A DNA stretch of 54,899 nucleotides from Candidatus Tayloriibacteriota bacterium. GTDB lineage: Bacteria > Patescibacteriota > Minisyncoccia > Phycocordibacterales > CAIRYW01. A program made the position numbers and the translations under genes. Position 1 is the stretch's first letter. Each line of letters begins with the position of its first letter. The notes under the pieces are model-generated. The model ran no database searches and was not told the origin of the DNA. It saw nothing but the letters and a program-made list of their open reading frames with translations. Below are positions 652 to 54,850 of the stretch, one piece after another. Where the stretch lies: contig JARIGV010000002.1 in assembly GCA_029288615.1 (NCBI GenBank), positions 1-54,899 on the forward strand. The letters are read 5' to 3'.

Positions 652-1233
652 TTACATCGCCGGGCTGTTGTGAAGAGACTTCGCAAAGGACTCAAGGTTC
701 GTACCAATAAGCACCGCATTTGCCGTCGGGTGCACATCGTCGACCGTCAGGATGTTACTTGCTTGGCAGATCCAGGCATCCGGAAGCAACTTCCTCGCTT
801 CTTCGAAACCTTCCTTGATCTTCGGCTCCTTCGCATTGATGAGCGCGAAGATATCCCTCGAGTTCCAGACGATTCGGAAACCTGAAGGAATCTTTTCGAG
901 GTCTTCGAAATAGTATGGCTCGATGAGGCACTGGCTTTCATTGCGCTCTGGAATGCGCCCAACGACGAGGACATAGTTGGCACCGCGCGCGAGCGCTTCA
1001 TCAACTTCCTCATCAGTGAAGTGAAAACCTTTCGCAAGAATGACCTTACCCGGCGCAAGTTCACGCGCCTTGGTGATGTACTCCATCGACCCGCCAAAAA
1101 GCGGATTTGTATGAATGGAGATCCAGTCACCCACCTCGCATGCGAGCGGGAAAAGTTCTTCCCATGTCTGGCCGGTGCTCATCGTCGGCGAACACGGCTT
1201 CACCTCTGCGATAACGATCGTGTCGGTATTCAT
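652..1233 (-). CDS. Indole-3-glycerol-phosphate synthase (TrpC/IGPS)-like TIM-barrel protein, short form
   Basis: The order of IGPS-like motifs is preserved: IAEVK..SPT, ISIHTNPLFGGS, ILAKGF, LIEP, WNSRDI, LIGTNL. GAGG lies 8 nt upstream of the ATG. Codon usage is G+C-rich, unlike the neighbouring genes. Confidence 0.6.
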   Translation of the reverse strand: MNTDTIVIAEVKPCSPTMSTGQTWEELFPLACEVGDWISIHTNPLFGGSMEYITKARELAPGKVILAKGFHFTDEEVDEALARGANYVLVVGRIPERNESQCLIEPYYFEDLEKIPSGFRIVWNSRDIFALINAKEPKIKEGFEEARKLLPDAWICQASNILTVDDVHPTANAVLIGTNLESFAKSLHNSPAM

Positions 1234-1268
1234 AACTTACCTCAACCTAACACATTGAAATCAGATGT

Positions 1269-2321
1269 CTATTCTTCGTTTGAAAGTTTATCCAAAATGA
1301 GAGGCTCAATGCCAGGAGACGATTCTGTAATACGCATAATATCTTTATCCACTTTCTTTAATTCTTTGCCAGATGAAATGAAATGATTGACCGTTGTTGA
1401 AAGCGAATTACCGAGTTTATTGTGGAATTCTTCATAACTCTTCAAATGTTTTCCAAGATCCTCGACACGTTTGATGATATCCTTCGCAGTCTCTTCGATC
1501 TGCATTGCTTTAAGGCCCTGAAGCACAGTCTGAAGATATGCCAAAAATGATGTCGGACTCACAATGATGACCTTATACTTTCCTGCCGCACGCTGAATAA
1601 GATTTTCATTATCCTCTTTAAGGGCGCCAATTTTATTGACCAAAAGATCATAGTAGATCGCTTCATGCGGAATGAACATGAATGCAAAATCCATCGTCCC
1701 TTCCGAAGGTTTTACATATTTTGATGTTTCGATAATTCGATTTTTGAGATCGTTTACAAAAATCTTCTCGAGTCTCTCTTTTTCTGCTTCATTTTTCTCT
1801 TCAATGATCCTGTTGTAATTTTCGAGCGAGAATTTTGAGTCGATGCAAATGATCTTATCTTTTACTTTCACAATCGCATCCACAATCGTGCCATCCGCAA
1901 ACGGGTACTGCATCTGGAAGCTTCCAGGCGGCAAAACATTTTTAAGGAGAGTTTCCAAATAATATTCACCAAGAATCCCTCGCTGCTTCGGATTTTTCAA
2001 AACATCCTGAAGGCTCTGGAGCTGATCTGCAAAAGAAATTACCTGCTTGTTTGTCTCATCGAGGCGCGCAAGACGCTCTGTAATATCCCGTATCACTTTG
2101 TACGACTCACTCGATTGATAGCGGAGCGATTCCTGCATCTCACGAGAAGTATCACGGATCTTTGAGTCCACCACCTTCGAGAGGTCATTTATATGAGAAA
2201 GAATAAGCTGGAGACCTGTACCATCTTCTTTTTCTGGCTCTTTTTTACGAAGCATGAGCCAAAGAATAATAGCGTTTATAAAGAAAATAGTGCCGATAGC
2301 AATGTAAATTCCTGAATTCAT
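1269..2321 (-). CDS. rmuC: DNA recombination protein RmuC
   Basis: 350 aa with an N-terminal TM segment, a coiled coil and an RmuC-type C-terminal nuclease-like region (IDSKFSLENY, FAFMFIPHEAIYYDL). Confidence 0.85.
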   Translation of the reverse strand: MNSGIYIAIGTIFFINAIILWLMLRKKEPEKEDGTGLQLILSHINDLSKVVDSKIRDTSREMQESLRYQSSESYKVIRDITERLARLDETNKQVISFADQLQSLQDVLKNPKQRGILGEYYLETLLKNVLPPGSFQMQYPFADGTIVDAIVKVKDKIICIDSKFSLENYNRIIEEKNEAEKERLEKIFVNDLKNRIIETSKYVKPSEGTMDFAFMFIPHEAIYYDLLVNKIGALKEDNENLIQRAAGKYKVIIVSPTSFLAYLQTVLQGLKAMQIEETAKDIIKRVEDLGKHLKSYEEFHNKLGNSLSTTVNHFISSGKELKKVDKDIMRITESSPGIEPLILDKLSNEE

Positions 2322-2386
2322 GACGACATTATATCAACATTCCCTTTTGTGATATAGTTTTTGCTATAGACAACTAAATAAAAAAG

Positions 2387-2836
2387 ATGCAAGACCAAAT
2401 CAGAGAACAGATCAAACAAGCAATGCTCGCAAAAGAAAGCGATAAGCTCACCGTACTCCGCGGCGTTCTTTCAGCTTTCACAAATGAGCTCGTAGCAAAA
2501 GGCAGAACACCTCAGGATAAGCTTACAGACGAAGAAGCAGTCGCAGTCATCCGCCGACTCGCAAAGCAGCGAAAAGATTCTATCGAGCAATTTGAAAAAG
2601 GAGGACGCGCCGACCTTGCAGATAACGAAAAGAAAGAGCTCGTTATTCTTGAAGCTTTCCTTCCACAGATGATGAGCCGAGAAGAGATCAAAAAAATCGT
2701 CGAAGCCAAAAAGGCAGAGATGGGAGAAGTAGATAAATCAAAAATGGGAATGTTTACAGGTGCCGTTATGAAAGAGCTTAAAGGAAAAGCTGATGGTGCG
2801 GATGTAAAAGCAGTGATCGACGAATTACTCGCGTAA
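2387..2836 (+). CDS. GatB/YqeY domain protein
   Basis: 149 aa with a typical YqeY N-terminus (I.EQIKQAML.K....L.VLRGVLSA) and C-terminal GKADG..V..VI. Confidence 0.85.
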   Translation: MQDQIREQIKQAMLAKESDKLTVLRGVLSAFTNELVAKGRTPQDKLTDEEAVAVIRRLAKQRKDSIEQFEKGGRADLADNEKKELVILEAFLPQMMSREEIKKIVEAKKAEMGEVDKSKMGMFTGAVMKELKGKADGADVKAVIDELLA

Positions 2837-2844
2837 ATAAAAAG

Positions 2845-3078
2845 ATGCACGAATCATTTGAACCAATCAAAGCAAATATTCCTGAGCTTGCAGATCAAGT
2901 GGCAGAAATAATGAGCACGGGCCCCGACCATGAATTGATGCCCACGATACTTCAAGTGATGCAAACTTTTATAGAAAAAGGCGGAAAAGTAGAGAATTCT
3001 GGGGCATTAGCAGGAGAAATTGCAGATGAGTTAGATCGAAGACATTTCACAACTGAACTACCACCACACATGAAATAA
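2845..3078 (+). CDS. Hypothetical acidic protein
   Basis: 77-aa ORF starting 8 nt after the yqeY-like stop and ending 1 nt before the next ATG, so it sits in an operon context. Confidence 0.5.
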   Translation: MHESFEPIKANIPELADQVAEIMSTGPDHELMPTILQVMQTFIEKGGKVENSGALAGEIADELDRRHFTTELPPHMK

Positions 3079-3079
3079 A

Positions 3080-3454
3080 ATGAGTCTCCGCACACCTGAA
3101 ACATTCAAGAAATACGAAGAAGCAAGAAAGAATGCTCCGCCCGGCTGCCCTCTCTGCCGAGCAAAAGACATCAATGTCATCAAAGATTTCACTTATTGGG
3201 TCATCATTCCCAACGATTTTCCCTACGACAAAATCGCGAAAGAAAATAACATGCTCACTTTGAAGCGTCATGCCGATCTCGATCAAATGACAGCCGAAGA
3301 AGCCGCAGAGCTTATTCTCATAAAATCACAAACACTTCCCACTCTTCCCTACTCAACTCTTTACGAAAACCTTCCACGACAACAAAGTGTAAAAGGTCAC
3401 TATCACATTCATCTCATTGTGCTCAAAGACGAATTTGCTGACATGCCGGCATAA
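3080..3454 (+). CDS. HIT-family (histidine triad) nucleotide hydrolase/transferase-like protein
   Basis: A histidine-triad-like GHYHIHLIV lies near the C-terminus, with CPLC near the N-terminus. 124 aa. Confidence 0.6.
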   Translation: MSLRTPETFKKYEEARKNAPPGCPLCRAKDINVIKDFTYWVIIPNDFPYDKIAKENNMLTLKRHADLDQMTAEEAAELILIKSQTLPTLPYSTLYENLPRQQSVKGHYHIHLIVLKDEFADMPA

Positions 3455-3490
3455 TCTTTTGCATAAAAATAGCCCAGAAATTTCCTGGAC

Positions 3491-3754
3491 TTAAGAATCA
3501 AGAACAACGAGGCCGTGAGGATAGACCGTAAACTTCTGCCGGAGCTCTGAGAGCTTCGGCTTTACTGTCTCATGATCGACATGAGTCCAGTTGTAAGTCT
3601 TCGGATCTTCGCGAAACCAGACGCGATGACATGCCCGGCATTCTACCAGTCGCTCATGGATCTCGACCGGATGAGTAAGGAAGACATCGCACTCGATGCA
3701 GCTCACGCCGATTCTCTCGAGGTTCTTTTGACTGCACGTTTGTGTCGCGCTCAT
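3491..3754 (-). CDS. Hypothetical small Cys-rich (CxxC...CxxC) protein, G+C-rich
   Basis: ORF 3491..3787. The second ATG at 3754 (MSATQTC..) is preferred because a TTGACG -35 box lies only 9 nt upstream of the first ATG and the first 11 codons are A+T-rich like non-coding sequence. Cys motifs: CIEC...CRAC. Confidence 0.5.
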   Translation of the reverse strand: MSATQTCSQKNLERIGVSCIECDVFLTHPVEIHERLVECRACHRVWFREDPKTYNWTHVDHETVKPKLSELRQKFTVYPHGLVVLDS

Positions 3755-3802
3755 ATAAAAAGTACTGATTTCAAAATAGTGCCTCATATTTTTATAAACG
3801 TC

Positions 3803-3832
3803 AATAATAAAAATTGCCCGATATGATCGGGC
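3803..3832 (-). terminator. Intrinsic terminator after ORF 3837..4133
   Basis: The GCCCGAT-CAT-ATCGGGC hairpin is followed by AATTTTTATTATT on the minus strand. Confidence 0.6.
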
Positions 3833-3836
3833 GAGA

Positions 3837-4133
3837 TTAGTGCGAGTAGCGCAGAGTGCGTGGCTGCACCAAATTGAAGATTAGTAAGAGCCCGAGCCCC
3901 GCTGTAAGCGGAATGCCGTATTTAATTCCGACGTAGGAACCCTTCGATGCCTCGTAACCGTAATTGTAGGCAGTATTCTTCCACCCAGACTTTTCCTTCG
4001 GTGTGAATGTCTCCTGCCATTCATTGAGATGGAGTGTCTCTGCATGGAAGGCCGCCTTGGCGACCTTCGGGCTTACGAAGTTGAACGTAGCAAGTGCCGC
4101 GCAAAACGCTATAAAGAGCTGGATTATTTTCAT
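3837..4133 (-). CDS. Hypothetical secreted/membrane-anchored small protein
   Basis: 98 aa with an N-terminal signal-like segment (MKIIQLFIAFCAALATFNFVSPKVAKA) and a C-terminal hydrophobic helix. Confidence 0.5.
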   Translation of the reverse strand: MKIIQLFIAFCAALATFNFVSPKVAKAAFHAETLHLNEWQETFTPKEKSGWKNTAYNYGYEASKGSYVGIKYGIPLTAGLGLLLIFNLVQPRTLRYSH

Positions 4134-4171
4134 TAAAGGAGATTATGCTATGAAATTGAGAGGGAGGCAAA

Positions 4172-4891
4172 TTATAATTGAAAATTGAAAGACTTCTTTA
4201 TTTGCTCTTTTGATAAATTTATTTTTTCAATAATCGTATCTCTTATTTTTAAAGTGATTTTATTAACCGATTCATCAATTTCCGTAACCTTTAAACAATA
4301 CTGGTCTATATTATCTAGCGCATCATTTCTAAAATTTTGTTGATTCAGAAGGTTTATATTTTTATTATAATTTAATAAAATATTTGAACAGATCGTTGCA
4401 ATCTCACTTAATTTGTTTTCTAGAAGATTATTCCAGTCTTCTTTTAATGCTGGAAAATAAGTGTCTATATAAGTGGCCGCTAATTCCATCTGTGCTTCAA
4501 TAGCTCTTGAAAAAATATCATTTGTATCTTCATATGTTTTTCCTGACTTAATCGCTTCTTTAATCCCCAATGTTGTACCTTTACACTTATGACTTTTATC
4601 AATAATTTGAATGAGCTTAGATATAACAAACAATCCCTTATCTTCAATAGATTCTACTATTTTTAGATTATAAGCGTATCGTCTGTCATGTAAATTTTGA
4701 ATTGAACTTAACAAGAGAGCTATTATAGTGAAAAAACCAATAATAAAGTTTGGATCAATATTTCTTACTAAGAGAAAACATCTGAAATTATCAGAAAATA
4801 AATACAGTACGAGCAAAAAAAACATTAGCAATAATACAGACTGGAGAATATGTTTTTGAAAGATATTAAAATATTTTTTTACTAAATCCAT
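4172..4891 (-). CDS. Hypothetical membrane protein (2 N-terminal TM segments plus a helical cytoplasmic domain), strongly A+T-rich
   Basis: 239-aa ORF with an ATG start and an Asn/Ile/Lys-rich composition. No family recognised. Confidence 0.6.
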   Translation of the reverse strand: MDLVKKYFNIFQKHILQSVLLLMFFLLVLYLFSDNFRCFLLVRNIDPNFIIGFFTIIALLLSSIQNLHDRRYAYNLKIVESIEDKGLFVISKLIQIIDKSHKCKGTTLGIKEAIKSGKTYEDTNDIFSRAIEAQMELAATYIDTYFPALKEDWNNLLENKLSEIATICSNILLNYNKNINLLNQQNFRNDALDNIDQYCLKVTEIDESVNKITLKIRDTIIEKINLSKEQIKKSFNFQL

Positions 4892-5068
4892 AATTTAACT
4901 ATAAATCATATTGAATTTGAGGGAATCGGTCACGAATATTTTGTTCGCCGCCGCTCACAAAATTTCTCGACCCCGACTCGCGGCAAATTCTGCTGAATTT
5001 GCGTCCGCTCCGTCTTTCGATTCCTTTTGCAAGGATACGCAAAAGTCGAAATTTCCTCCAGAAATTTG

Positions 5069-5140
5069 TGACCCTACGGGGAATCGAACCCCGATTTAAG
5101 CCTTGAGAAGGCTCCGTCCTAACCGTTAGACGATAGGGCC
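5069..5140 (-). tRNA. tRNA-Glu (anticodon CUC)
   Basis: Manual cloverleaf: GGCCCUA-UC-GUCU-AACGGUUA-GGAC-G-GAGCC-UUCUCAA-GGCUU-AAAU-CGGGG-UUCGAUU-CCCCG-UAGGGUC-A. CCA is not encoded. Confidence 0.95.
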
Positions 5141-5204
5141 TAAAAGCAGGAAGACTATAGCACTTTTTAATTAAATCTGGAAGATTTTTGATATAATTAG
5201 CCCC

Positions 5205-5501
5205 ATGAAAAAACCATATTTAAACGCCCTTGCGGCAGCAGTTTATATCTCTCTCGTCGTATTATTCATGCATTACATGCAGTCGATTCGCCATGACACG
5301 CCTGACACTTTTATCGACGGCCTCGGCATGATCTCACTCATCGTATTCTCAGCAGCTGTAATGGGATTCCTCTTCTTCTATCAGCCAGTAGTACTTCTCA
5401 TTGAAAACAAGAAAGCGGAAGCTATGCGATATTTCCTCCAAACTCTTGGCACATTCGGTATTGTCACAGCAATCGCTTTGATCCTTGTAAGCATTCAGTA
5501 A
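5205..5501 (+). CDS. Hypothetical membrane protein (3 TM)
   Basis: 98-aa hydrophobic ORF. TGaTATAAT at 5189..5197 lies 7 nt before the ATG. Confidence 0.6.
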   Translation: MKKPYLNALAAAVYISLVVLFMHYMQSIRHDTPDTFIDGLGMISLIVFSAAVMGFLFFYQPVVLLIENKKAEAMRYFLQTLGTFGIVTAIALILVSIQ

Positions 5502-5545
5502 ATTAAAAACCTTTAAACACACCCTTTGTTTGGGTGTGTTTTTAT

Positions 5546-5574
5546 TTGACGTTTTATGTAAAACGTGGTATTAT
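5546..5574 (+). promoter_or_regulatory. Sigma-70-type promoter TTGACG-17-TATTAT
   Basis: -35 at 5546..5551 and -10 at 5569..5574. The ATG at 5583 is 8 nt downstream of the -10. Confidence 0.5.
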
Positions 5575-5582
5575 TAAGCCCT

Positions 5583-5810
5583 ATGAAAATCCGTTCCTTC
5601 TTGAAACACGTGGGTGTGTGGGTCGTCTGGTATCTTGGCTTCATCTTCATGATGACGACTGCGGTCCCGATAATTCACGCTATCATGGCCTATCAGCACC
5701 ATCGTCCTTCCCTTGCCTACTGGGTTCTCGCTGCTGCGATCTTCGCGGTAAGCCACATCACCTGGCGCTGGGCCGACCACAAACGCTGGCAGCTCAAAAA
5801 GATCGGCTAA
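5583..5810 (+). CDS. Hypothetical small membrane protein, G+C-rich
   Basis: ORF 5565..5810. The ATG at 5583 is chosen because the -10 box overlaps the upstream GTG. Two TM helices. A hairpin terminator (GCCGCTCGTCTTCGGACAGCGGC plus a T-rich tail) follows. Confidence 0.5.
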   Translation: MKIRSFLKHVGVWVVWYLGFIFMMTTAVPIIHAIMAYQHHRPSLAYWVLAAAIFAVSHITWRWADHKRWQLKKIG

Positions 5811-5954
5811 CACCGACCGGCATCATCCACACAAAAAAGCCGCTCGTCTTCGGACAGCGGCTTTTCTCTTTTTAAATTGACTTCCAAAACCTCTTTGATA
5901 CTCTTCCCAGAGCGTTTTGGTACAACACCAGAGCTTTATTTCAAAGGAGAAACT

Positions 5955-6296
5955 ATGCCCGATTCAAAACATGGTAAGTGGGACGAAATCAGCCACGCTG
6001 ACGCCCTGCCCTACCTTCTTCCGGAGGGTGTGACGCGTTTGTGTGAAATAATATACGACGATGGCGATACTCGCCGCTCTTCGTATGAAGCATACATTGG
6101 CACCACTAAAGGTGTGTTTCGCTACAGACATTCCAGCACTTCCGATTTTCCTCGTGAAAAGAAAGAAGCAGAACACATCGGCCTCGAGGAGTTCGAGATC
6201 GTGAAGCTCGAACAGCGCGGCGAGACAATCGTTGCCTACTCAAAGTGTAACAAAGCCTTTAAAGCCGCGAGTTATATTCTCAGAGGCACCCGCTAA
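5955..6296 (+). CDS. Hypothetical protein, G+C-rich
   Basis: ORF 5877..6296. The internal ATG at 5955 is preceded by AAAGGAG (5943..5949). The terminator CCCTCgtcatGAGGG plus a T-run follows. Confidence 0.55.
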   Translation: MPDSKHGKWDEISHADALPYLLPEGVTRLCEIIYDDGDTRRSSYEAYIGTTKGVFRYRHSSTSDFPREKKEAEHIGLEEFEIVKLEQRGETIVAYSKCNKAFKAASYILRGTR

Positions 6297-6374
6297 CCCC
6301 TCGTCATGAGGGAATTTTTATTTATTTGACTTTTTTTATAAATATTGCATTATGTGTGAGAAAAGTTTTTTGAT

Positions 6375-6725
6375 ATGAACTACGATCCGATTATCCTCAT
6401 CATCCTCGCCTTCTACTACTCGAACGTACTCTGCGTCGTTGCAACACGAAGTATTCTCGAAAAAAGTAAGGTGCGATGGAACTCGCTAAGCCTCGGCTTT
6501 ATTTTCATTGTGGTCCTAGCACCAATGCTCGACGGCGTGAAGCTCAGCGAAGTGTACCTGGGACTTCGCAAGGAAGAATTGGCTACATTATTTGATTGCG
6601 GACTTTTCCTGATTTTCTTTTTTTTACTTTCCTACTGTTTCTTTAGAGCAATGTTTACGCCTTTGGCGGAGCTTTTGGAAGAAGAAAAAAGACAAAAGAA
6701 AGGGACGATTTATATCAGCAGATAG
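6375..6725 (+). CDS. Hypothetical membrane protein
   Basis: 116 aa with about 3 TM helices and a charged tail. Confidence 0.55.
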   Translation: MNYDPIILIILAFYYSNVLCVVATRSILEKSKVRWNSLSLGFIFIVVLAPMLDGVKLSEVYLGLRKEELATLFDCGLFLIFFFLLSYCFFRAMFTPLAELLEEEKRQKKGTIYISR

Positions 6726-6761
6726 TAACAAAAATGACCCGAACCATCGGGTCAATTTTTA

Positions 6762-8054: not shown

Positions 8055-8065
8055 ATTTTTATTTG

Positions 8066-9775: not shown

Positions 9776-10076
9776 TCTTAAAAGCTATGCTAAGACCTGA
9801 AGATTTCTTTGCAACGAGCGTATCTGTCACTTCTACGTAGCCAAGTGAGTGAGCCATTGTGCTGTCGATTGATGCTGTTGCGCTGAGGTACGCAAATTCA
9901 AGCTTGCTCACATCTGATGTAAGAGCTGCGATTTCTTTTTCCGCATCCTGGCGAGCGAGGGTGTTTCGCACAGTCTGGAGCATAAGACCAACATAGAGAG
10001 CTCCGAGGACAAAACAGAGAGCTGAGAGAGTCCAGAAGACTTTTTGGTATCGATATTGTGATGGAACTTTTGTCAT
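9765..10076 (-). CDS. ftsL: FtsL-like cell-division protein
   Basis: 103 aa with a single N-terminal TM followed by a short coiled region. The position between rsmH and ftsI and the 11-nt overlap with ftsI support the call. Confidence 0.6.
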   Translation of the reverse strand: MTKVPSQYRYQKVFWTLSALCFVLGALYVGLMLQTVRNTLARQDAEKEIAALTSDVSKLEFAYLSATASIDSTMAHSLGYVEVTDTLVAKKSSGLSIAFKNEI

Positions 10077-10082
10077 TGTATT

Positions 10083-10994: not shown

Positions 10995-10996
10995 AT

Positions 10997-11431
10997 TTAG
11001 AATGCTCCTGTTTGGCTCAGTTTCTCAGCGAGAGAATCTGCGCCGGCAACCACCCTCTTCTTGTAGTCCTCCCATCTCTTCTCATTCCAGACTTCAAGGC
11101 GACTGTGCACTCCAATAAATACCGCCCCTGTTTTTACTTCCGCAAACTCTCGCAAATATTCCGGGATAAGAATTCTTCCTAGCGCGTCTACCTCAAGCTC
11201 CACAGCGCCACCAAACATGAATCTGTTGAACTCTCGCCAGTCACTTTTAAGCATTCCTCCCGAAGCAATCTGCCCTGATATCTTCTGCCACTCTTTTTGC
11301 GGATACAAAGAGAGACAGTTTTCCAAACCATATGTGGCTACAATCTTCTTGCCCATCTCCTTGCGAAATTTCGACGGCAGCGAAATGCGTTTTTTGTCGT
11401 CGATTGTGTGTTTGTATTCGCCGATAAGCAT
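10997..11431 (-). CDS. mraZ: Transcriptional regulator MraZ
   Basis: Two SpoVT/AbrB-like halves carrying the DxxxR motif (DDKKRISLPSKFR and DALGRILIP). First gene of the dcw cluster. Confidence 0.95.
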   Translation of the reverse strand: MLIGEYKHTIDDKKRISLPSKFRKEMGKKIVATYGLENCLSLYPQKEWQKISGQIASGGMLKSDWREFNRFMFGGAVELEVDALGRILIPEYLREFAEVKTGAVFIGVHSRLEVWNEKRWEDYKKRVVAGADSLAEKLSQTGAF

Positions 11432-11444
11432 TTTTAATTATTTA

Positions 11445-18365: not shown

Positions 18366-18369
18366 GTAT

Positions 18370-22364: not shown

Positions 22365-22844
22365 ATGAAAAGTGAATTGCTTCCAGTTCAAACAACCCTA
22401 CCACCTCTAGAAGGAAACGCGGAGCTTGAAGCAAAATTTGGCGACAACGAAGCCAATAAACGCTATCTTGCTCGGTTAGCCGATCCCATCTTTACACCTG
22501 AACAAGTTCAGCGACTGTGTATCAGGGCAGTCGAGATTGAGATCGACAACACAAGCGATGGAATGTCGATCGCTGAGCTTATGAGTGTAGCGTGCCACAT
22601 GACGGATATACCCTGCACTCTCATTGCCTGTCCGACAGGAAACCAGATCGCTCGACTGACGGAGAATTTTTTGGGAGAAACGGAATTGCCCTGCATCATT
22701 CCTGTCCGGTGTGGCAAGGAAAGATCCTGCGTTGTGTGGGAAAACAAACCCGGCAATGCAAAAACGCTTCGACTCTGCGCGCCTTCTATTCCCTTTCACG
22801 GCACTGTGTTCGTGATGGTACCCATAGCGTCCGAACACATATAA
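22365..22844 (+). CDS. Hypothetical protein, G+C-rich, Cys-rich C-terminal half
   Basis: 159-aa ORF followed by tandem hairpins. No family recognised. Confidence 0.55.
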   Translation: MKSELLPVQTTLPPLEGNAELEAKFGDNEANKRYLARLADPIFTPEQVQRLCIRAVEIEIDNTSDGMSIAELMSVACHMTDIPCTLIACPTGNQIARLTENFLGETELPCIIPVRCGKERSCVVWENKPGNAKTLRLCAPSIPFHGTVFVMVPIASEHI

Positions 22845-22845
22845 C

Positions 22846-22912
22846 CCTCGAGCCCTCTCCCCCAGGGCTCGAGGAACTTTACACCGAGATCTAGCATCTC
22901 GGTATTTTTTTT
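22846..22912. terminator. Tandem hairpin terminators between convergent genes
   Basis: CCTCGAGCCCT..AGGGCTCGAGG at 22846..22874 and CCGAGAT-ctagc-ATCTCGG at 22884..22902, followed by a T8 run. Confidence 0.6.
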
Positions 22913-26516: not shown

Positions 26517-27290
26517 ATGAAAGTCGTTAATATCCCCTTCAAGGGAAAGTACAAGGTCAGCGAAACCGGAGTAAACAGTCGCGACGCTCGCTTCCTGAGC
26601 GATCTTCGTACCTGGCAACTGCCTCCGATTGATTCTGTCATCGAGATCAACGATCAGATCTGTATCGTCGTGCCACAAGCGAGCACCGCTTTTGGTGAGC
26701 TCACTGGAATCCTACTTGAAGATCGTCAATCCGCCCGCGGCAAACATACGTACGGAGCGATCATAAGTAACGATCTCGTCGTTGCTGCAGCCGAAGGCCG
26801 CTTTGAGCAAGCGATCGTCCCGCCGGTCATCGCAGCGGCAGAAAATCTCTGGGGAAAAAAGGCAGAGAAAGTGGGATACATGTTTAGCGTGCCGATCCGC
26901 GACGCTGAATGGAAAGACATGTTTGACAATTGGCATCAGAGTGAAAACAAATCCCCATTCTTCAATTGCCATCGGCTTTCTGAGAAACTCAATCACCTAC
27001 GAGTGTTTCCTGATTGCGAGAAGCTCGAGCAAATTGTCGTTCGCGAGACCGAAAGTGTTCTCGAGCATCAAATCTGGGGGCCTGGATATCACTTGAAAGC
27101 CCGACTCAACGTCGGTGCACTCGGTGAGATCAACTCAGATATGCAAAAAGGTCCAATCGTCATCGCGAGCGGAATCCTGACAGCATCTCTTGGCAACACT
27201 AACATTCGCACCAAATCGCTCGATATACGACCAAACATCATTTCCTTGATGAATGGGCTCATCGAACCGATCAAGGTGATCGATAAATAA
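26517..27290 (+). CDS. Hypothetical protein, G+C-rich
   Basis: ORF 26493..27290, with ATG at 26517 (MKVVNIPF..). The terminator TGGCGC-agac-GCGCCA plus T6 at 27303..27326 follows. No family recognised. Confidence 0.55.
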   Translation: MKVVNIPFKGKYKVSETGVNSRDARFLSDLRTWQLPPIDSVIEINDQICIVVPQASTAFGELTGILLEDRQSARGKHTYGAIISNDLVVAAAEGRFEQAIVPPVIAAAENLWGKKAEKVGYMFSVPIRDAEWKDMFDNWHQSENKSPFFNCHRLSEKLNHLRVFPDCEKLEQIVVRETESVLEHQIWGPGYHLKARLNVGALGEINSDMQKGPIVIASGILTASLGNTNIRTKSLDIRPNIISLMNGLIEPIKVIDK

Positions 27291-31752: not shown

Positions 31753-32097
31753 ATGAAAACGTTCTCTACATCCACAGTTGCAGCGCTATTTTTACTGGCG
31801 ATGCCAAACATGAGCCAAAGCAGCATGGAAACCGATAACGATGATGTCTACATCATCGTAAAAAACGACGGTGACCATACGGTTGGCACAGCAATTGACG
31901 GAAATCTCGCCAAAACCATTGAACCGCACAAACAGCGGATCATCAAAATCGCACGTCAGGTTCATCTGTGCAAACAAGTGCCGTTTATTATCAATGTGGC
32001 AAGCATGCCATCTGATGACGGCGTGATTGCGATCCCGAATATGCCAAGCTCCGCATTTTCTGAGCCAAGCAATTTCTCGATCAGCATGCACTACTAA
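31753..32097 (+). CDS. Hypothetical secreted protein, G+C-rich
   Basis: ORF 31690..32097, with ATG at 31753 giving the signal peptide MKTFSTSTVAALFLLAMPNMSQS. The terminator GCCAGCA..TGCTGGC at 32099..32126 follows. Confidence 0.5.
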   Translation: MKTFSTSTVAALFLLAMPNMSQSSMETDNDDVYIIVKNDGDHTVGTAIDGNLAKTIEPHKQRIIKIARQVHLCKQVPFIINVASMPSDDGVIAIPNMPSSAFSEPSNFSISMHY

Positions 32098-32725: not shown

Positions 32726-33181
32726 CTAATCAATAATTTTTACCCAAAGCACTCCTGGAAAACCGTCATCAGGATCATTGATAACACCGCGATTTGAAAA
32801 TCCAAGTTTCTCATAGAATTTCCACGAGGCATTGTGTGTATCAGGGCTATAGCATTCTATTTCAGTGAAATGTAATTTTTTTGCCTCTTCAATAATTCTC
32901 TGGCCAACAATATTTCCGATGCCTTTATTTTGTATTTTAGAGGCAATAACATAAAGCTCAACGGGACTTTTTGTTGTTGCGTGAGCGTAAAGATGTTCAG
33001 GAGCTTTTCTAAATCCTGCAATTCCCACCACTTCACCATCACTCTCTGCAACATAAAACTGTACACTTGGATCAGTTAATTTTTCTTCGAGTTCATTTAA
33101 AAATCCTTTGTCAGTCCAATATGTACTGAAAATCCTTTGCACCTCATCTTTATCCTTACTGTTATATTTTCTTGTTTCCAT
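32726..33181 (-). CDS. GNAT family N-acetyltransferase
   Basis: Acetyl-CoA binding motif QNKGIGNIVGQRIIEEA. 151 aa. Confidence 0.8.
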   Translation of the reverse strand: METRKYNSKDKDEVQRIFSTYWTDKGFLNELEEKLTDPSVQFYVAESDGEVVGIAGFRKAPEHLYAHATTKSPVELYVIASKIQNKGIGNIVGQRIIEEAKKLHFTEIECYSPDTHNASWKFYEKLGFSNRGVINDPDDGFPGVLWVKIID

Positions 33182-33210: not shown

Positions 33211-33245
33211 ATATAAAAATACACCACAGAGACTTCTCTGTGGTG
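33211..33245 (-). terminator. Intrinsic terminator after ORF 33271..33855
   Basis: CACCACAGAG-aagtc-TCTGTGGTG followed by TATTTTTATAT on the minus strand. Confidence 0.65.
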
Positions 33246-33270: not shown

Positions 33271-33855
33271 TTAGAGCAGAACGTGACAGGCCGCGATTTG
33301 GACGGTGGAGTTGGTCATTTCCTCCACCATAAACAGGCCGTACTTGCCGCCGTCGGTCATCATGGCAACGATTTGCTCTTGATGAAGATCGATGACGACT
33401 TGGCGCAAACCGAAGGATTTGCGGCACGCTTCCACGAGCAGGTCGGCGTCCTTCTGCGAATGGATCGCCTTGAACTCTTCGATCGTGAGATCGGTCGGAG
33501 CAAACCATGTCTCACCGAAGAGACTGTGGTCTTCGACACCCTTAAGCATGCCGGAAGCGCACGCTGCTTTGATCGAGAGGACCCGAGGATCCGCATCAGT
33601 GAAGTGGAAGAAGGCGTTGGCTTCCATACCCAGACTCTTGGCCTGGCATGTAGGACGCGCCTTGTTCGATTTGCACTTCATAAGCGCGTACAGCGGGCAT
33701 TCCCCACCGAAGTGAGAACGATAGCTGTAGAATTCGCCAGGAACTGCAGGAATGATGTCCTGACTGAGCGCCAACTGTTGCTCTGCCACAGACGGAGAAG
33801 TGGCACGTTTCTCGTCCGCTTTAACCGGCGGACCCGGGGTTTGTACTATTTTCAT
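33271..33855 (-). CDS. Hypothetical protein, strongly G+C-rich
   Basis: 194-aa ORF. A minus-strand promoter TTGACT-17-TAAATT (plus coordinates 33863..33891) ends 7 nt before the ATG. A minus-strand terminator follows the stop, which decides between the two fully overlapping antisense ORFs. Confidence 0.55.
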   Translation of the reverse strand: MKIVQTPGPPVKADEKRATSPSVAEQQLALSQDIIPAVPGEFYSYRSHFGGECPLYALMKCKSNKARPTCQAKSLGMEANAFFHFTDADPRVLSIKAACASGMLKGVEDHSLFGETWFAPTDLTIEEFKAIHSQKDADLLVEACRKSFGLRQVVIDLHQEQIVAMMTDGGKYGLFMVEEMTNSTVQIAACHVLL

Positions 33856-36568: not shown

Positions 36569-36913
36569 TCAGCCTTTGAGTGGGACGATCGCGAAACGGA
36601 AGACGGCCAGGTCCTGGTTCTTCAGGGTATGCCGCACGTGCATCTGCGTCTTCGCGGACTCTGCGTCGGAGAGCCGGAAAGCGACAGATTGGCCGACCCA
36701 GTAGTGACCGACGCGCGGCGCATCCATCCGATAGATCTTGCCGGAGGAGATCACAGTGACTTCGACGATCTGCTTGTTCGCCGTCTGGCGAATGGAGTCG
36801 ATGATGCCGATTTTCTTCTCCGACGTGAAGTCGGACGGAGTCAGAGCCGGAGCCGAATTGATGCCACCGAGCAAAAGCACGGCAGCCACGATGGTGTTAA
36901 GGAACGATTTCAT
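36569..36913 (-). CDS. Hypothetical secreted protein, G+C-rich
   Basis: 114 aa with signal peptide MKSFLNTIVAAVLLLGGINSAPA. A TTGACT -35 box lies upstream. Confidence 0.55.
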   Translation of the reverse strand: MKSFLNTIVAAVLLLGGINSAPALTPSDFTSEKKIGIIDSIRQTANKQIVEVTVISSGKIYRMDAPRVGHYWVGQSVAFRLSDAESAKTQMHVRHTLKNQDLAVFRFAIVPLKG

Positions 36914-36991: not shown

Positions 36992-37510
36992 ATGTTCATT
37001 TTTCCTTTTCCAAAATCACCACATCACGACGGTGGTCGTATCGGCCCAGTGACAATGCAAGATTGGTATGTGAATTTACGCTATGCGATCGAGTTACATC
37101 GACACTATCGCCAATCGAAACTTCTCATCCTGACTGCTTTTGCACAAGGTGGAGTTTCTGAGGCAGAGATTTACATCAATACACTCCGACATGCCGGCAT
37201 TGAAAGAAGCGATCTAGAGGTTGTCGATGAAGGCTTTGAAACAATAGGCCAAGTGGCCGCTGCGGAAAGCATTGCCAAAGAAAAAGGCCGTGCACTCGTA
37301 ATCGTGTCGACACTTCTCCACTTCCCTCGCATCCGCTATTACGCGAAAAGCGAGACAGTGGTCCGCACTGATCCGCTTGGGATTCCAAGACTCTCAGAAA
37401 TACCACGCGACATCTTGATGATGCTTGGAGCTCCTCTCTTTGACATTTCCGGGTGGAGGGATCGATTTGCAGAGCTTGTTATCAAACGGCGCAGGAATGG
37501 AATACTCTAG
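36992..37510 (+). CDS. DUF218/YdcF-like protein
   Basis: The pattern R.A..L......L.L...GGVSEAE.....L...G......V.....T..Q plus IVST..H.PR resembles DUF218. TGtTATACT lies 7 nt before the ATG. Confidence 0.5.
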   Translation: MFIFPFPKSPHHDGGRIGPVTMQDWYVNLRYAIELHRHYRQSKLLILTAFAQGGVSEAEIYINTLRHAGIERSDLEVVDEGFETIGQVAAAESIAKEKGRALVIVSTLLHFPRIRYYAKSETVVRTDPLGIPRLSEIPRDILMMLGAPLFDISGWRDRFAELVIKRRRNGIL

Positions 37511-37904: not shown

Positions 37905-37972
37905 TAAAATAAAAATTCTCACAGCCGTCGAAGACAGCTGTGAGTGTTTTTTTTGGAATGTACGTGATCGTT

Positions 37973-38806
37973 CTAGCGTCGACGGCGGCGAAGGCCGAAG
38001 AGCCCGAGTGCGCCGATAAGTGCGCACGTGGTCGTACCAGGTTCAGGCACAGACTGAATGGTCACCGTGGCGGAGCCAATCGGCGTGCCGTTCATGCTGT
38101 AGGTACCAGTGAATTGAACATCCTGGTTGAAACCCTGGGCCATAAGACCATTGATAACGCCGTTGATCTTGTCCTGATTGGTCGCCCCTGGATCGGTCGA
38201 GACCGCCGCGGGAACATTGCCACTGCCACGGCCGATGATTTCATCGACGAGCTGCGTATTTGACCCACTTGTAATAAAGACATCGTCACCTGTGCCGAGG
38301 ATGCCATCAGCGCCTTTTTGCACGCCAACATACTCATTCGAGTAGTTATAGCTTCCAGCCGCGAAGCTGAAGCCGAGGTAATTTCCCGGGTCGCTTGAGG
38401 TCGCGCTGAAGCTGAGGTTCGAGATGCTGAACTGGCTATTTCCAGTGATGACGACACCAAACTGCAGGCGATTGCCGAGCTCATTTGCGTACGCGGCACC
38501 GTAGGCACCAACAGGGTCAGCGTTTCCAAGCCACGACGGAAATCCAGTCGCAATGAATTGGTTGAGCTGAACCGATCCATTCAAACGGACATACTGACTC
38601 GGTCCAGGAGCGCCGACTGTCGACGCGCCAGTTTCGAGACCTGTGATCGCGTTTGTCACCCATCCCGAATAGGACGGCGAACCAAAAGCGTTCGGAGCCA
38701 TAGCTGGAATGACTTGCCCATTGATGCCACCACCCTCACTGATAGCGTGAAGCGGTGTGAGGTTGCTTATAACGATCGCGCAAAGCGCGAAGATGTACTT
38801 ATTCAT
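37973..38806 (-). CDS. PEP-CTERM sorting-domain protein, G+C-rich
   Basis: ATG at 38806 gives the signal peptide MNKYIFALCAIVISNLTPLHA. The C-terminus VPEPGTTTCALIGALGLFGLRRRRR has the PEP motif, a TM helix and an Arg cluster. Confidence 0.75.
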   Translation of the reverse strand: MNKYIFALCAIVISNLTPLHAISEGGGINGQVIPAMAPNAFGSPSYSGWVTNAITGLETGASTVGAPGPSQYVRLNGSVQLNQFIATGFPSWLGNADPVGAYGAAYANELGNRLQFGVVITGNSQFSISNLSFSATSSDPGNYLGFSFAAGSYNYSNEYVGVQKGADGILGTGDDVFITSGSNTQLVDEIIGRGSGNVPAAVSTDPGATNQDKINGVINGLMAQGFNQDVQFTGTYSMNGTPIGSATVTIQSVPEPGTTTCALIGALGLFGLRRRRR

Positions 38807-49465: not shown

Positions 49466-50368
49466 ATGAAAGAGATTAAAGATTTCATTTCAGACAGAGT
49501 CTCAAAAGATATTGCGATCATTGTCGCTTTTCTTCTTGCTGTCACAGCAGGATTTTTGGGTTTTAAATATTATCTTCTTCTTCGAGAAAATTCCGTGCTT
49601 AAAATGAGCAATGATTCTCTTAATAATTCTCTCCAGGCACTCACTATAAACTACAGCAAGCTTCGTGATGAAAAAAACGGCCTTTCAACTTCCCTTCAAG
49701 ATCAAACACAGAAAGTCACAGCTCTCGCAAATGAAGTCGGTGGCATTTCTGGCACAGTGAGCACTCTCACAAAACTCTCACAGACCGATCCTGAGCTTCT
49801 TGAGAAATATTCGAAAGTATATTTCCTCAATGAAAATTATGTTCCTAAATCTCTCACTCCGATCGCTCCAGAATTTACATTTGAAAAAAGCAGAACATAC
49901 ATGGCACTTACAGACATCATGCCTCATCTGCAAGGAATGCTTCTTTCTGCAAGTTCAAGCAATATAAATCTTCTTGTTGTTTCCGCGTATCGATCTTTTA
50001 ATGATCAGTCATCACTTAAGTCTACATATAAAGTGACATATGGCGCCGGAACAGCAAATTCATTCTCAGCTGATCAAGGATACTCAGAACATCAGCTCGG
50101 CACAGCTTTCGACCTTACAACAAAAAAAGTTGGTGGCTCTTTCACAGGGTTTGAAAAGACTGATGCATATACATGGCTTGTCGCTAATGCATATAAATAT
50201 GGTTTCATTCTTTCCTATCCTCCTCACAATTCTTATTATGTGTATGAGCCTTGGCACTGGCGTTATGTTGGTATTGCACTCGCAACATATCTTCACGATC
50301 AAAATAAAAATTTCTACGATCTCGACCAACGAACAATTGATCAGTATCTCGTCAATTTCTTTGACTAA
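49466..50368 (+). CDS. D-alanyl-D-alanine carboxypeptidase, peptidase M15B (VanY-like)
   Basis: N-terminal TM and coiled coil, then SAYRS, SEHQLGTAFD and EPWHWRYVG motifs. Confidence 0.85.
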   Translation: MKEIKDFISDRVSKDIAIIVAFLLAVTAGFLGFKYYLLLRENSVLKMSNDSLNNSLQALTINYSKLRDEKNGLSTSLQDQTQKVTALANEVGGISGTVSTLTKLSQTDPELLEKYSKVYFLNENYVPKSLTPIAPEFTFEKSRTYMALTDIMPHLQGMLLSASSSNINLLVVSAYRSFNDQSSLKSTYKVTYGAGTANSFSADQGYSEHQLGTAFDLTTKKVGGSFTGFEKTDAYTWLVANAYKYGFILSYPPHNSYYVYEPWHWRYVGIALATYLHDQNKNFYDLDQRTIDQYLVNFFD

Positions 50369-51002: not shown

Positions 51003-52283
51003 ATGGAAAAAATAGTCCTTGATTTTCTTTCGGCTCACGGCCCGCTTTTCCAAACACTCGGCTATTACATAGTCTTTGTTTCTGGCTTTCTCGAATCCCT
51101 TCCAGTTGCAGGTTTTATTATTCCTGGGCAGACCATTGTAGTCATCGGAGGATTCTTTGCCAAAAGGAAAGCTGTAGCATTTCTTCTCATGCTCGCCTTC
51201 GCAGCGGTGGGTGCAATACTTGGAGATGTAGTAAGTTATTATCTTGGAAAAAAGTACGGTGAAAGTTTTCTTCGCAAACACGGCGGGAAATTTTTTGTAA
51301 AAGAAAGTCTTATTGAATCGACAAAAAAACTTGTCCGAGAGCACACAGGAAAAGCTCTTTTTTTCGGAAGACTTAATGGAGTCACTCGTTCACTTGCTCC
51401 CTTCATCGCTGGAACATCTGGCATCGAAACTTCTACTTTCCTTTTTTATTGTACAAGCGGTTGCTTTGCATGGGCCACCATTTTCGTTTCTGTTGGATAT
51501 ATTTTCGGCAGAAGCTTTGAAGTGGCAGCACCAGTTATTGGAAAATTTATTATTCTTGCAACACTTATTGTAGGTGCGCTCATTCTTCTTGTTCAATATA
51601 TGAAAAAGCGAGGCTTCACACTTTCTCGCTACGACATACAGCTCCTCGTCACAAACATTGTTTCAATCTATGTTTTTACAAGTATTGGCCAAGCACTTGC
51701 AAAAGGATCACAAATTATTGGATCTTTTGATATGCGCACAGAAAGGATTATTGACCGACTTCATTCGCCTCTTTTTGATAAAGTCATGCTCATCATTGGG
51801 AATATCGGTGAAGTGCAGCTTATTGTTCTTGTTGGATTACTTTGTCTCCTTCTTCACTTTGAAAAACGAACTCGAGAAAGTATTTCTTTGACACTCTCAC
51901 TTCTAACGGGATATATTCTCGTCTTCTTCACAAAAATTATTTTTCTTCGACCACGACCGCCTGCTGGTATGATTACTCTTTCCGATTCTAGTTTCCCTTC
52001 AGGTCATGCTACTCTCTCAACACTTTTTTTCCTCATTATCATTCATACATTTACTCCAAAAATTCCTTCAGGGCTTCGACGCTTCATCTTCGTAACATGT
52101 AACATACTCCTTATCATCACCGTCTGCTTCTCACGAGTATATCTTGATGTGCATTATGCGACCGATGTCATTGCAGGCATAGCCCTTGGAGCTTGGGTTT
52201 TCTCGCTCACTCTCCTTGCGTCAAAATGTGCACCGTGGTTACATAAGAAAATTAAAAGAGAACAAATTATTCCTAATCTATAA
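51003..52283 (+). CDS. Fusion protein: DedA (VTT/SNARE-associated) domain plus PAP2 phosphatase domain
   Basis: aa 1 to about 200 carry DedA motifs (GFLESLPVAGFIIPG; FGRLNGVTRSLAPFIAG). aa from about 300 to 426 carry the PAP2 motifs KIIFLRPRP, PSGHAT and SRVYLDVHYATDV. Confidence 0.85.
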   Translation: MEKIVLDFLSAHGPLFQTLGYYIVFVSGFLESLPVAGFIIPGQTIVVIGGFFAKRKAVAFLLMLAFAAVGAILGDVVSYYLGKKYGESFLRKHGGKFFVKESLIESTKKLVREHTGKALFFGRLNGVTRSLAPFIAGTSGIETSTFLFYCTSGCFAWATIFVSVGYIFGRSFEVAAPVIGKFIILATLIVGALILLVQYMKKRGFTLSRYDIQLLVTNIVSIYVFTSIGQALAKGSQIIGSFDMRTERIIDRLHSPLFDKVMLIIGNIGEVQLIVLVGLLCLLLHFEKRTRESISLTLSLLTGYILVFFTKIIFLRPRPPAGMITLSDSSFPSGHATLSTLFFLIIIHTFTPKIPSGLRRFIFVTCNILLIITVCFSRVYLDVHYATDVIAGIALGAWVFSLTLLASKCAPWLHKKIKREQIIPNL

Positions 52284-52288
52284 ATCCA

Positions 52289-53533: not shown

Positions 53534-53536
53534 AAA

Positions 53537-53566
53537 TTCGCCTGTTATTACAGGCGAAGCTTTTTT
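53537..53566. terminator. Bidirectional hairpin terminator
   Basis: TTCGCCTG-ttatta-CAGGCGAA followed by T6. Confidence 0.65.
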
Positions 53567-53791
53567 GGCAACTTAGGTATCTCACATTTTCTTTCGAGAG
53601 TCATTTCCCTGCGCCATTCAACAAAATGAATCACTGGGTGATACCTGAGATCAGATTCGGCCTTTGCATTCATCACAGTCTGCTCGTTGCAAAGGACATT
53701 GCTTTGACTGGAGATATAGATACCAACAAACGATAATGTACTATCGCATTGACCAAGAAAAAGTGCCCTACTCATATCGGGCATATATAAT

Positions 53792-54586
53792 ATGAAAAAC
53801 AATCCTATGTCAAAAATTTGGAACCAAAAACAGATCAAAGATCACGAGGAAGCTGCACAGAAACTAGGTCTTGTAAAAGACGACGTCAAAGAATTTTTGT
53901 CTGCGCACAAAAATGTCAGCGAGTCTGAAGTTCTTATTTTTATAAAGAAAAGATATAGAGCGCACGGACTTATAAATGATGACAAGAAAGAATTTGCGAT
54001 TGTTGCCTTTCGTGAGAACACATCTGCTGTGCATTATTTTCCTAAAAAGAAAGGGCTTCTTCTAAAAAATAATTCACTTATCCTTCTCGACATCTGGGCA
54101 AGACTTGATAAGAAGAATACTCCCTACGCTGATATGACTTGGATGTTTTATTTTTTGCCGAAGCAAAAAATATCAAAAAACAGCGTGGGTAGAATTCCGA
54201 AAGACATCGAGAAAAAATGGCAGATTCTGCGAGATGCTCGAGACACAGCAGTCGAAACAATAAAAAAATTTCTTACAAAGAATTCCCTTCCACGCGGCCT
54301 TGATATCGATCGAGCGTCACACGACTTTCTAGGAGAAAAAAGTTTTGGTGAGAATATTAAACACACAGTCGGACATTCTCTTGGATTTGATCATCCACAC
54401 GGGACACTTCCAGGAATCAACTGGCGTGAATATCGAACACTTTCAAAAAATATTGGCTACACAATAGAGCCTGGAATGTATTTTGAGAAGAAATTCGGTC
54501 TGCGTACCGAAATAGATTTCTATATTTCAAAAGAAAATAAAGTTATCGTTACAACCCCCGTTCAAGAAAATATTGATCTCATTTGA
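53792..54586 (+). CDS. M24 family metallopeptidase (Xaa-Pro peptidase-like)
   Basis: GHSLGFD.HG and EPGMYFE..FGLRTEID motifs. An alternative ATG lies at 53807. Confidence 0.75.
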   Translation: MKNNPMSKIWNQKQIKDHEEAAQKLGLVKDDVKEFLSAHKNVSESEVLIFIKKRYRAHGLINDDKKEFAIVAFRENTSAVHYFPKKKGLLLKNNSLILLDIWARLDKKNTPYADMTWMFYFLPKQKISKNSVGRIPKDIEKKWQILRDARDTAVETIKKFLTKNSLPRGLDIDRASHDFLGEKSFGENIKHTVGHSLGFDHPHGTLPGINWREYRTLSKNIGYTIEPGMYFEKKFGLRTEIDFYISKENKVIVTTPVQENIDLI

Positions 54587-54610
54587 CATCATGCCTCATT
54601 CTTCTAAACT
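54583..54610 (+). promoter_or_regulatory. Promoter TTGACA-16-TAAACT overlapping the M24 stop codon
   Basis: -35 at 54583..54588 (it contains the TGA stop) and -10 at 54605..54610. The ATG at 54620 lies 9 nt downstream. Confidence 0.45.
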
Positions 54611-54619
54611 GGGTGCAGT

Positions 54620-54850
54620 ATGGCACAACCCATCCCAGAAAAATGCGATCATTGCAAAGAGCGCGATGCAACACGAGAAATTGAAATCCACGTCTGGTCA
54701 CTAGGACCTGGAAATTGCACGCAGATTACACTCGGCAAATGCTGCAGCCTGGAAGCCTGTGCGCTTGCACTTACCTCGATGGCTCAGAAAAAAATCAGAG
54801 AGGGTCTCACCTTCGCACCGCCTCCTGCACTTTCCGAAAGCACAATCTAA
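54620..54850 (+). CDS. Hypothetical small Cys-rich protein, G+C-rich
   Basis: 76 aa with CDHC...C......CC....C. The terminator CGCTCCA-tcg-TGGAGCG plus a T-run follows. Confidence 0.45.
   Translation: MAQPIPEKCDHCKERDATREIEIHVWSLGPGNCTQITLGKCCSLEACALALTSMAQKKIREGLTFAPPPALSESTI

Follow-up and report, generated by a model that had tools for sequence, protein, structure and literature searches.

Introduction

In the framework of Lawrence and Ochman, genes gained by horizontal gene transfer (HGT) are compositionally atypical and then ameliorate, the deviation fading as their synonymous sites turn over; acquired genes are usually AT-richer than the host. We analysed the whole of contig JARIGV010000002.1 from an NCBI assembly, 54,899 bp in length (referred to throughout as the window; 41.7% GC, 67 gene calls), in which short GC-rich open reading frames (ORFs), here called islands, are scattered through an AT-rich backbone. 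The islands proved to be genuine accessory genes, each with its own terminator, in a Paceibacteria-like bacterium of the candidate phyla radiation (CPR). Two of them, a conserved-family gene at 33271-33855 and a PEP-CTERM gene at 37973-38806, were traced through other genomes, and in both the excess of G+C at third codon positions (GC3) stops at the ends of the ORF and persists at saturated synonymous sites. The islands resemble acquired genes in the Lawrence-Ochman sense in being single genes with deviant GC3 and codon usage wedged between conserved operons, and the family of the PEP-CTERM gene is one characteristic of other phyla. They differ in being GC-rich in an AT-rich host and in having no mobility hallmarks, and the two traced islands keep their deviation in positional orthologues at near-saturated four-fold degenerate sites.

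Two other kinds of described system invite comparison. The effects of GC-biased gene conversion (gBGC) or of selection for GC in bacteria are modest and are either genome-wide or tied to recombining regions. Bacterial gBGC or synonymous GC selection has been reported by Lassalle et al. in 2015, by Hildebrand et al. in 2010 and by Raghavan, Kelkar and Ochman in 2012. The islands share with such systems a shift from A or T (W) to G or C (S) across all codon classes against an AT-biased background, but they are confined to single ORFs, have borders that are sharp on a 100 bp scale, are heritable per family and deviate by +0.2 to +0.6 in GC3. With integron cassettes they have in common that they are small single ORFs, mostly without a known function, that are followed by an inverted repeat, with GNAT genes nearby. 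Unlike cassettes they are dispersed rather than arrayed and have their own promoters, and their hairpins are short terminator-like stems with T-tracts that share no attC-like sequence. The integron-cassette reading was rejected because the window contains no attC-like sites after the ORFs, no integrase and no array beside an intI gene, and because the ORFs are dispersed.

Composition of the islands

The original prediction had listed 12 island ORFs with a sharp switch of codon usage at their ends. The switch is real: G+C at synonymous third positions (GC3s) is not uniform, with a mean of 0.568 for the 12 ORFs versus 0.331 for the other 55 (Mann-Whitney p = 1.8e-7). Measured against 23 large backbone genes (GC3s 0.308 +/- 0.039), ten of the listed ORFs are strong outliers with z between 4.6 and 10.9. 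The list itself needs amending, as 36992-37510 and 54620-54850 are weak outliers and two islands, 3837-4133 and 6375-6725, had been omitted (Table 1). At four-fold sites C rises to 0.33 in the islands from 0.16 in the backbone and G to 0.27 from 0.13, while A falls to 0.16 from 0.36; this is a general W-to-S shift at silent sites that affects every synonymous class and includes CCG, GCG, CTG and AAG. Short backbone genes show no GC3 shift. The amino-acid composition of the islands shifts slightly, except for Cys, which is four-fold more frequent. The borders are sharp, with a GC of 0.46-0.58 inside versus 0.24-0.43 in most 100 bp flanks. In composition and codon usage the islands are therefore as atypical of their host as a recently acquired gene is expected to be.

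High GC3 is also seen elsewhere. The conserved native gene mraZ (10997-11431, minus strand) is elevated as well (GC3s 0.50, z 5.0), so that high GC3 is not limited to orphan genes. Further GC3-rich genes are found in related low-GC contigs (L017 8528-10039, L070 122-10083 and L079 4171-5793), where the examples comprise a serine recombinase with a GC3 of 0.71, a GC-richer block of about 10 kb that includes tgt, and small ORFs with a GC3 of 0.49-0.66. Compositional mosaicism seems to be common in these related genomes.

The 33271-33855 family

An exhaustive HMMER search of 1.8e9 proteins places the product of 33271-33855 in a family of about 190 amino acids with 74 representative clusters that are at most 54% identical. 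Six residues are invariant (Y43, Y45, C61, K65, F128 and H191) and a C-terminal ACHILL motif is conserved. The AlphaFold (AF2) model has a confidence score (pLDDT) of 92.5; a fold search with it returned a weak resemblance to DUF4466 and nothing else. A metagenome scan gave 56 loci from many projects, of which 55 have a low-GC backbone and one a GC-rich backbone. The homologue exceeds the median GC3 of the flanking, mechanically called ORFs in 44 of the 45 loci that have flanking ORFs, by +0.05 to +0.6, and the single exception is the locus with a 65% GC backbone.

The gene has a stable position. In 24 loci it lies directly upstream of the same GNAT gene as in the window, with a gap of 44-96 bp in 23 of them and an overlap in L056, and with GNAT identities of 38-65%; a recently acquired gene would be expected to be absent from the orthologous position. 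The neighbour in other loci is an S66 LD-carboxypeptidase (at least seven loci, including L030, L035, L042 and L071). Backbone genes of the window recur around some homologues: L025 additionally has def, fmt and S30AE nearby and L037 has the order HisRS-mreB-mreC-PBP2 as in the window; tgt is common to L060, L070 and L025. Pairwise distances of the family and of its GNAT neighbour are correlated (Mantel r = 0.67, 0/5000; r = 0.64 in the co-oriented subgroup), and in three close genome pairs the divergences of gene and neighbour are concordant (6.0/4.2, 3.4/2.3 and 10.5/6.6%).

The GC3 of the family is higher than that of the adjacent GNAT gene in all 25 loci compared (mean 0.50 versus 0.27; Wilcoxon 2e-6). 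Mean GC across 33 non-redundant loci is about 0.50 in the gene itself and falls, in the 100 bp after the stop codon, to 0.23 before reaching 0.36. Four-fold sites of the window gene are 0.37 identical to those of its relatives, where chance gives 0.25; with these sites near saturation, the excess cannot be a relic. GC3 in the family partly tracks the GC3 of the backbone (r = 0.55). Of 46 families shared by two or more loci, this family, its antisense shadows and the PEP-CTERM family show a consistently strong positive GC3 difference from their surroundings, and housekeeping families lie at zero. As judged from these comparisons, 33271-33855 is a long-term resident of this type of genome.

GNAT and S66 LD-carboxypeptidase are the two enzyme types of MccE/MccF-type immunity against peptidyl-nucleotide antibiotics; a functional link of the 33271-type gene to such immunity is speculative.

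The PEP-CTERM gene

The call of a PEP-CTERM protein at 37973-38806 in the original prediction was confirmed by Pfam PF07589, which matches residues 283-307 of a 308-residue form with 21.7 bits (cut-off 20.7); the NCBIfam PEP-CTERM models match the C-terminus only, below their cut-offs. The predicted protein has a signal peptide and, at its C-terminus, a PEP motif, a hydrophobic transmembrane helix and a basic Arg cluster that score above a curated threshold, as expected of an exosortase substrate, and homologues that match over the full length carry the PEP-CTERM annotation. It departs from described PEP-CTERM/exosortase systems in its setting, a sortase-bearing CPR-type host with no exosortase among the ORFs of the 55 kb window, and in the variant tails of some low-GC homologues, such as the weak VPDSG-CTERM match in L017.

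There are 225 full-length homologues, which are 44-55% identical; the named ones come from Planctomycetia, Acidobacteria, Bryobacteraceae and Phenylobacterium. Genomic context was inspected for four homologues in GC-rich genomes, and in each the gene has native composition (L075, 55%; L076, 63%, with SurA, Wza and KdsA in the context; L077 from Planctomycetia, 51%; L080, 69%). In all five low-GC contexts (the window, L016, L017, L078 and L079; 41-46% GC) it is instead a GC-rich singleton with a GC3 of 0.52-0.59 against neighbours that are mostly at 0.25-0.45. Homologues from GC-rich genomes are 46-54% identical and no closer than the low-GC copies; the identity matrix is star-like, identities among the low-GC copies not exceeding those to the GC-rich ones, and it therefore gives no count of the transfers.

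Synteny between L016 and L079 extends around the gene, and the neighbouring genes are 66-79% identical, so that here too the island is present at the orthologous position. Their four-fold identity is 0.29-0.40, i.e. saturated, and GC3 is 0.58 in both. On these grounds the GC-richness of this gene is persistent and not recent. The gene probably entered the low-GC lineages by an ancient transfer from GC-rich diderm bacteria.

Explanations for the GC3 excess

The best overall explanation, to which we give slightly better than even credence, is that the islands are long-resident genes whose silent sites are held GC-rich by a continuing force confined to each gene: because the excess is gene-confined and survives synonymous saturation, the GC-richness looks like an equilibrium property and not the decaying signature of an import. 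The islands would be independently transcribed, leaderless, monocistronic accessory genes. Our preferred candidate for the force that would keep their silent sites GC-rich is selection on the coding sequence or mRNA, which is favoured by the sharp borders, by the unaffected co-oriented GNAT gene 80-90 bp away and by the partial tracking of backbone GC3; its target could be mRNA stability, or the speed of translation as set by codons used rarely in this genome. The PEP-CTERM gene, plausibly the product of the ancient transfer proposed above, would have stayed GC-rich ever since. Several points weigh against this explanation. Tracing covered only two islands out of about 14, and carrying the conclusion over to the roughly ten others is an extrapolation; some of these may be genuine recent imports. 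The excess varies from +0.04 to +0.6 between lineages, unlike the effect of a single uniform pressure, and the flank medians from which it is calculated depend on mechanical ORF calling. Biased gene conversion, too, classically leaves a W-to-S shift in every synonymous class. Several independent transfers of the PEP-CTERM gene may have occurred, given its star-like matrix, and the taxonomy of contigs L016, L017, L078 and L079 was inferred from gene content only.

The original prediction had instead proposed repeated acquisition of foreign genes from a higher-GC donor, possibly the host of an episymbiont. It is plausible that the PEP-CTERM gene is ultimately foreign, but both traced islands have orthologues of the same composition in related genomes, an observation that had itself been named in advance as pointing to ancestral genes, and we found no donor, no link to a host and no mobile-element hallmark. 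Repeated and relatively recent import of single genes, with the GC excess not yet ameliorated, is unlikely as a general account. In its favour, the island GC3 values would correspond to donors of 45-66% GC, members of the PEP-CTERM family match the composition of the sampled GC-rich genomes, including the Planctomycetia metagenome-assembled genome, and the window has a sortase and no exosortase. The islands at 22365 and 26517 are missing at the same positions in the nearest relatives, which are distant (L012-L015): these carry UDG after delta', where the window has 22365-22844, and lack 26517-27290 in the murA neighbourhood. HGT, including that of single genes, is documented in Patescibacteria (PMC12455944), which we count in favour of recent import. 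Against it, each of the two traced islands shows the same excess in its positional orthologues although synonymous divergence is saturated, and the relic of a recent import would have ameliorated. The closest homologues are only about 55% identical, so there is no recent donor in 15 billion proteins. The islands show no border repeats, no integrase or transposase and no consistent linkage to a tRNA target, and the pooled GC at first codon positions is 0.55, where a donor of 53% GC would give 0.60 (a Muto-Osawa comparison of GC1/GC2 with GC3, which is a weak test). A phage or defence origin was rejected, since searches of the island proteins against PHROG, PADLOC, phage genomes and viral contigs gave no matches. 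Integration targeted to tRNA genes was also rejected: tRNA-Asn and tRNA-Glu lie near islands in the window, but a tRNA is nearby in few of 46 related loci.

Recombination limited to the gene, in which exchange hot spots, gBGC or recurrent replacement by GC-richer alleles keep GC3 high, has a rather low probability in our estimate, and gene-limited biased conversion or recurrent allelic replacement nevertheless stays a serious rival because every synonymous class is shifted and the proteins evolve fast. C-ending and G-ending codons both increase in every class, as gBGC predicts; the island proteins diverge faster than their neighbours (a distance of 0.52 versus 0.37 for the 33271 family and GNAT, and an identity of 53% versus 66-79% between L016 and L079); and GC3 within the 33271 family shows clade-level inertia that is partly independent of the backbone. 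Such a process has to be reconciled with an excess that is gone within 100 bp of the stop codon and leaves the co-oriented GNAT gene unaffected or below background, with the concordant divergence of gene and neighbour in the three close pairs, and with polarized third-position changes that show no W-to-S excess (31 W>S versus 46 S>W, although these numbers are small and biased by parsimony). Codon bias linked to very high expression, with G/C-ending codons as the translationally optimal ones, is very unlikely. The products of several islands are of a secreted or surface type and may be abundant, and the native mraZ gene is likewise elevated; genes expected to carry such a bias are nonetheless at background, both in the window (GC3s of L21 0.36, GreA 0.33, RRF 0.29, S30AE 0.30 and the MreB paralogues 0.30 and 0.34) and among the ribosomal protein genes of L012-L015, and the shift covers CCG, GCG, CTG and AAG and not a tRNA-specific subset.

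An artefact, whether a chimeric assembly or noncoding or dual-coding sequence mistaken for genes, is barely credible, and for the two traced islands it is largely refuted. Dozens of independent assemblies, made in different projects, have identical junctions of island and backbone, which bears out the argument of the original prediction against chimeras, and the 33271 family has protein-like conservation and a confident model. Several frames are open across the islands, as had been described (two to four frames), and this would suit a dual-coding reading; it matches what codon usage predicts and is a by-product of it. The openness of alternative frames does not exceed that of synonymous shuffles, only seven of 33 genes have a fully open antisense frame, and an overlapping-gene or antisense-gene reading was rejected as the alternative frames are not conserved open. 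A structured-RNA reading was rejected as well: an Rfam scan of the window found two tRNAs only and no structured-RNA family, and the RNA-fold z-scores are -2.3 and -0.6.

Signals and products of the individual islands

Several features ascribed to the islands in the original prediction held up: a terminator-like hairpin with a T-tract follows directly after the stop codon in every island scanned, and signal-peptide-like N-termini and CxxC pairs are present as described. Terminator-like sites are about twice as frequent as in shuffled sequence. The claim of TTGAC-type promoters holds in part. A TTGAC-type -35 box with a -10 box that ends 5-9 nt before the ATG is found in five of 14 islands versus three of 53 other genes, but promoter-like matches overall are at chance level (39 versus 37 and 34 versus 37). 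The promoters, of a leaderless type, and the terminators around the islands are in the style of the host's own signals. Shine-Dalgarno-like motifs are nearly absent (six of the 67 window genes), and a TATAAT-like -10 box lies 5-10 nt before the start of many genes (for example 1269-2321, 5205-5501, 49466-50368 and 51003-52283); the scarcity of the former and the closeness of the latter to start codons suggest that leaderless mRNAs are the rule in the host.

A recurrent intergenic signal was seen on an 893 kb metagenome contig, L021, where positions 1491-11504 hold six copies of a module of about 90 nt, spaced about 2 kb apart. In each copy a promoter-like TTGGTTACATAATGGGGTGGAATTTGGTAAGAT comes after a terminator hairpin (AAAACGAGGCC...GGCCTCGTTTT), and the gene blocks between its copies are rearranged in the related L022.

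The gene at 652-1233 had been called IGPS-like. There is a partial Pfam IGPS match (2e-8, 34 bits) that covers only profile positions 47-150 of 254, and the protein aligns with residues 34-224 of Thermotoga maritima IGPS (E = 4e-6). It scores 31 bits against the NCBIfam TrpC equivalogs, whose cut-offs are 258-380, and so falls short of a full-length TrpC; the protein is best regarded as a putative shortened TrpC-like barrel and not a demonstrable TrpC.

Table 1. Islands of the window and the GNAT gene next to 33271-33855, with predicted products, composition and signals.
Coordinates	Strand	Product	GC3s (z)	Promoter-like element	Hairpin	Further observations
652..1233	-	193 aa, shortened TrpC/IGPS-like TIM-barrel protein	0.63 (9.7)		532..501	Gene-called; singleton at 90% identity clustering
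3491..3754	-	87 aa, two CxxC pairs	0.58 (5.6)		3491..3471, at stop	No Pfam, NCBIfam, PHROG or PADLOC family
3837..4133	-	98 aa, signal-peptide-like N-terminus	0.62 (6.7)		3832..3816	No family match
5565..5810	+	Small two-helix membrane-like protein, likely start 5583	0.64 (6.5)	TTGACG-17-TATTAT, ends 8 nt before ATG 5583		Frame choice ambiguous, three overlapping ORFs
5955..6296	+	113 aa	0.54 (5.3)		6298-6312	No family match
6375..6725	+	116 aa, membrane-like, moderately GC3-rich	0.52 (4.9)	TTGACT-16-CATTAT, upstream	6735-6754, bidirectional	
22365..22844	+	159 aa, Cys-rich, between RRF and DNA polymerase III delta'	0.48 (4.6)		22883-22903 (+), 22875..22845 (-)	No PDB or family match
26517..27290	+	257 aa, between murA and priA	0.54 (8.0)		27303-27318	Gene-called; singleton; no phage, viral or PDB match; single-sequence AF2 model pLDDT 36, uninformative
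31753..32097	+	114 aa, signal-peptide-like N-terminus	0.52 (5.0)	TTGACC-16-TAGCAT, ends 7 nt before ATG	32098-32118	
32726..33181	-	GNAT acetyltransferase, downstream neighbour of 33271 gene				Pfam Acetyltransf_1 1e-14; GC3 0.26, backbone-like
33271..33855	-	194 aa, conserved family	0.64 (9.9)	TTGACT-17-TAAATT	33245..33222	
36569..36913	-	114 aa, most GC3-rich, signal-peptide-like N-terminus	0.78 (10.9)	TTGACT-18-AATAAT with TG, ends 8 nt before ATG	36537..36515	Gene-called; singleton; RNA-fold z -0.6
36992..37510	+	172 aa, DUF218 domain, weakly GC3-enriched	0.42 (3.2)		37510-37530	Pfam DUF218 4e-9
37973..38806	-	277 aa, secreted, C-terminal PEP-CTERM motif	0.59 (10.3)		37944..37918	GC 0.55
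54620..54850	+	76 aa, small, Cys-rich, at contig end, weak outlier	0.44 (2.5)	TTGACA-16-TAAACT, ends 9 nt before ATG		

The window and its host

The backbone of the window holds a dcw-type cluster (mraZ, rsmH, ftsI and a Mur ligase), mreB/mreC/PBP2 and genes for LysRS, HisRS, GreA, RseP, RRF and S30AE together with murA, priA, def and fmt; a sortase with surface proteins, VanY and peptidases are also encoded. The best matches of murA are 60-64% identical, the named ones being mostly assigned to Nomurabacteria, Pacebacteria or the Patescibacteria group, and the gene order S30AE...fmt...def...murA-mreB-delta' is common to the window and those relatives. These matches and the shared order place the host as a Paceibacteria-like CPR bacterium without a close relative in the collections. 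A scan of GTDB representatives with PriA gave only matches of 21-25% identity, so there is no sister genome for fine-scale tests of presence and absence.

Some further features of the window were noted. It encodes two MreB paralogues (17313-18386 and 24060-25073), one in the mreBCD-PBP2 cluster and the other immediately after murA; L012-L015 have a counterpart of the latter that is 75% identical. Between 43098 and 48710 the sortase gene adjoins genes for cadherin-like, CAP-domain and SpaA/Ig-like proteins (the last with a peptidoglycan-binding domain), a sortase-dependent surface-protein cluster of backbone composition. An outlier in the opposite direction, the 239-residue ORF 4172-4891 (minus strand; 25.7% GC, GC3s 0.20, no family match), sits among GC-rich ORFs next to tRNA-Glu(CTC) at 5068-5140. 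The stretch 3491-6725, which follows the dcw cluster on its downstream side, resembles a variable region, and L064 has the same order rsmH-ftsI-Mur ligase...tRNA-Glu(CTC) as the window.

Implications

Methods based on GC, GC3 and k-mers are standard for calling HGT genes and for cleaning metagenome bins. They would flag the islands as foreign or as contaminants, although at least two of them are stable and vertically inherited in CPR genomes. In targeted literature searches we met no account of gene families in CPR/Patescibacteria that are persistently GC3-rich. It is possible, if doubtful, that CPR/Paceibacteria genomes hold a heritable class of genes whose silent sites are actively kept 20-60 GC3 points above background over the very long term. 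Should this be so, it would amount to a gene-specific compositional code, for example for control of mRNA lifetime or of translation through rare codons, and any detector that relies on composition would mistake such genes for horizontal acquisitions.

A widespread protein family with a confidently predicted fold, paired with a GNAT protein or an S66 peptidase, also emerges from the work on 33271-33855. A gene-confined excess that survives saturation implies selection or biased conversion acting on silent sites, a surprise in organisms whose evolution is seen as governed mainly by drift and AT-biased mutation. The islands offer a testable handle on the role of silent-site composition in ultra-small bacteria.

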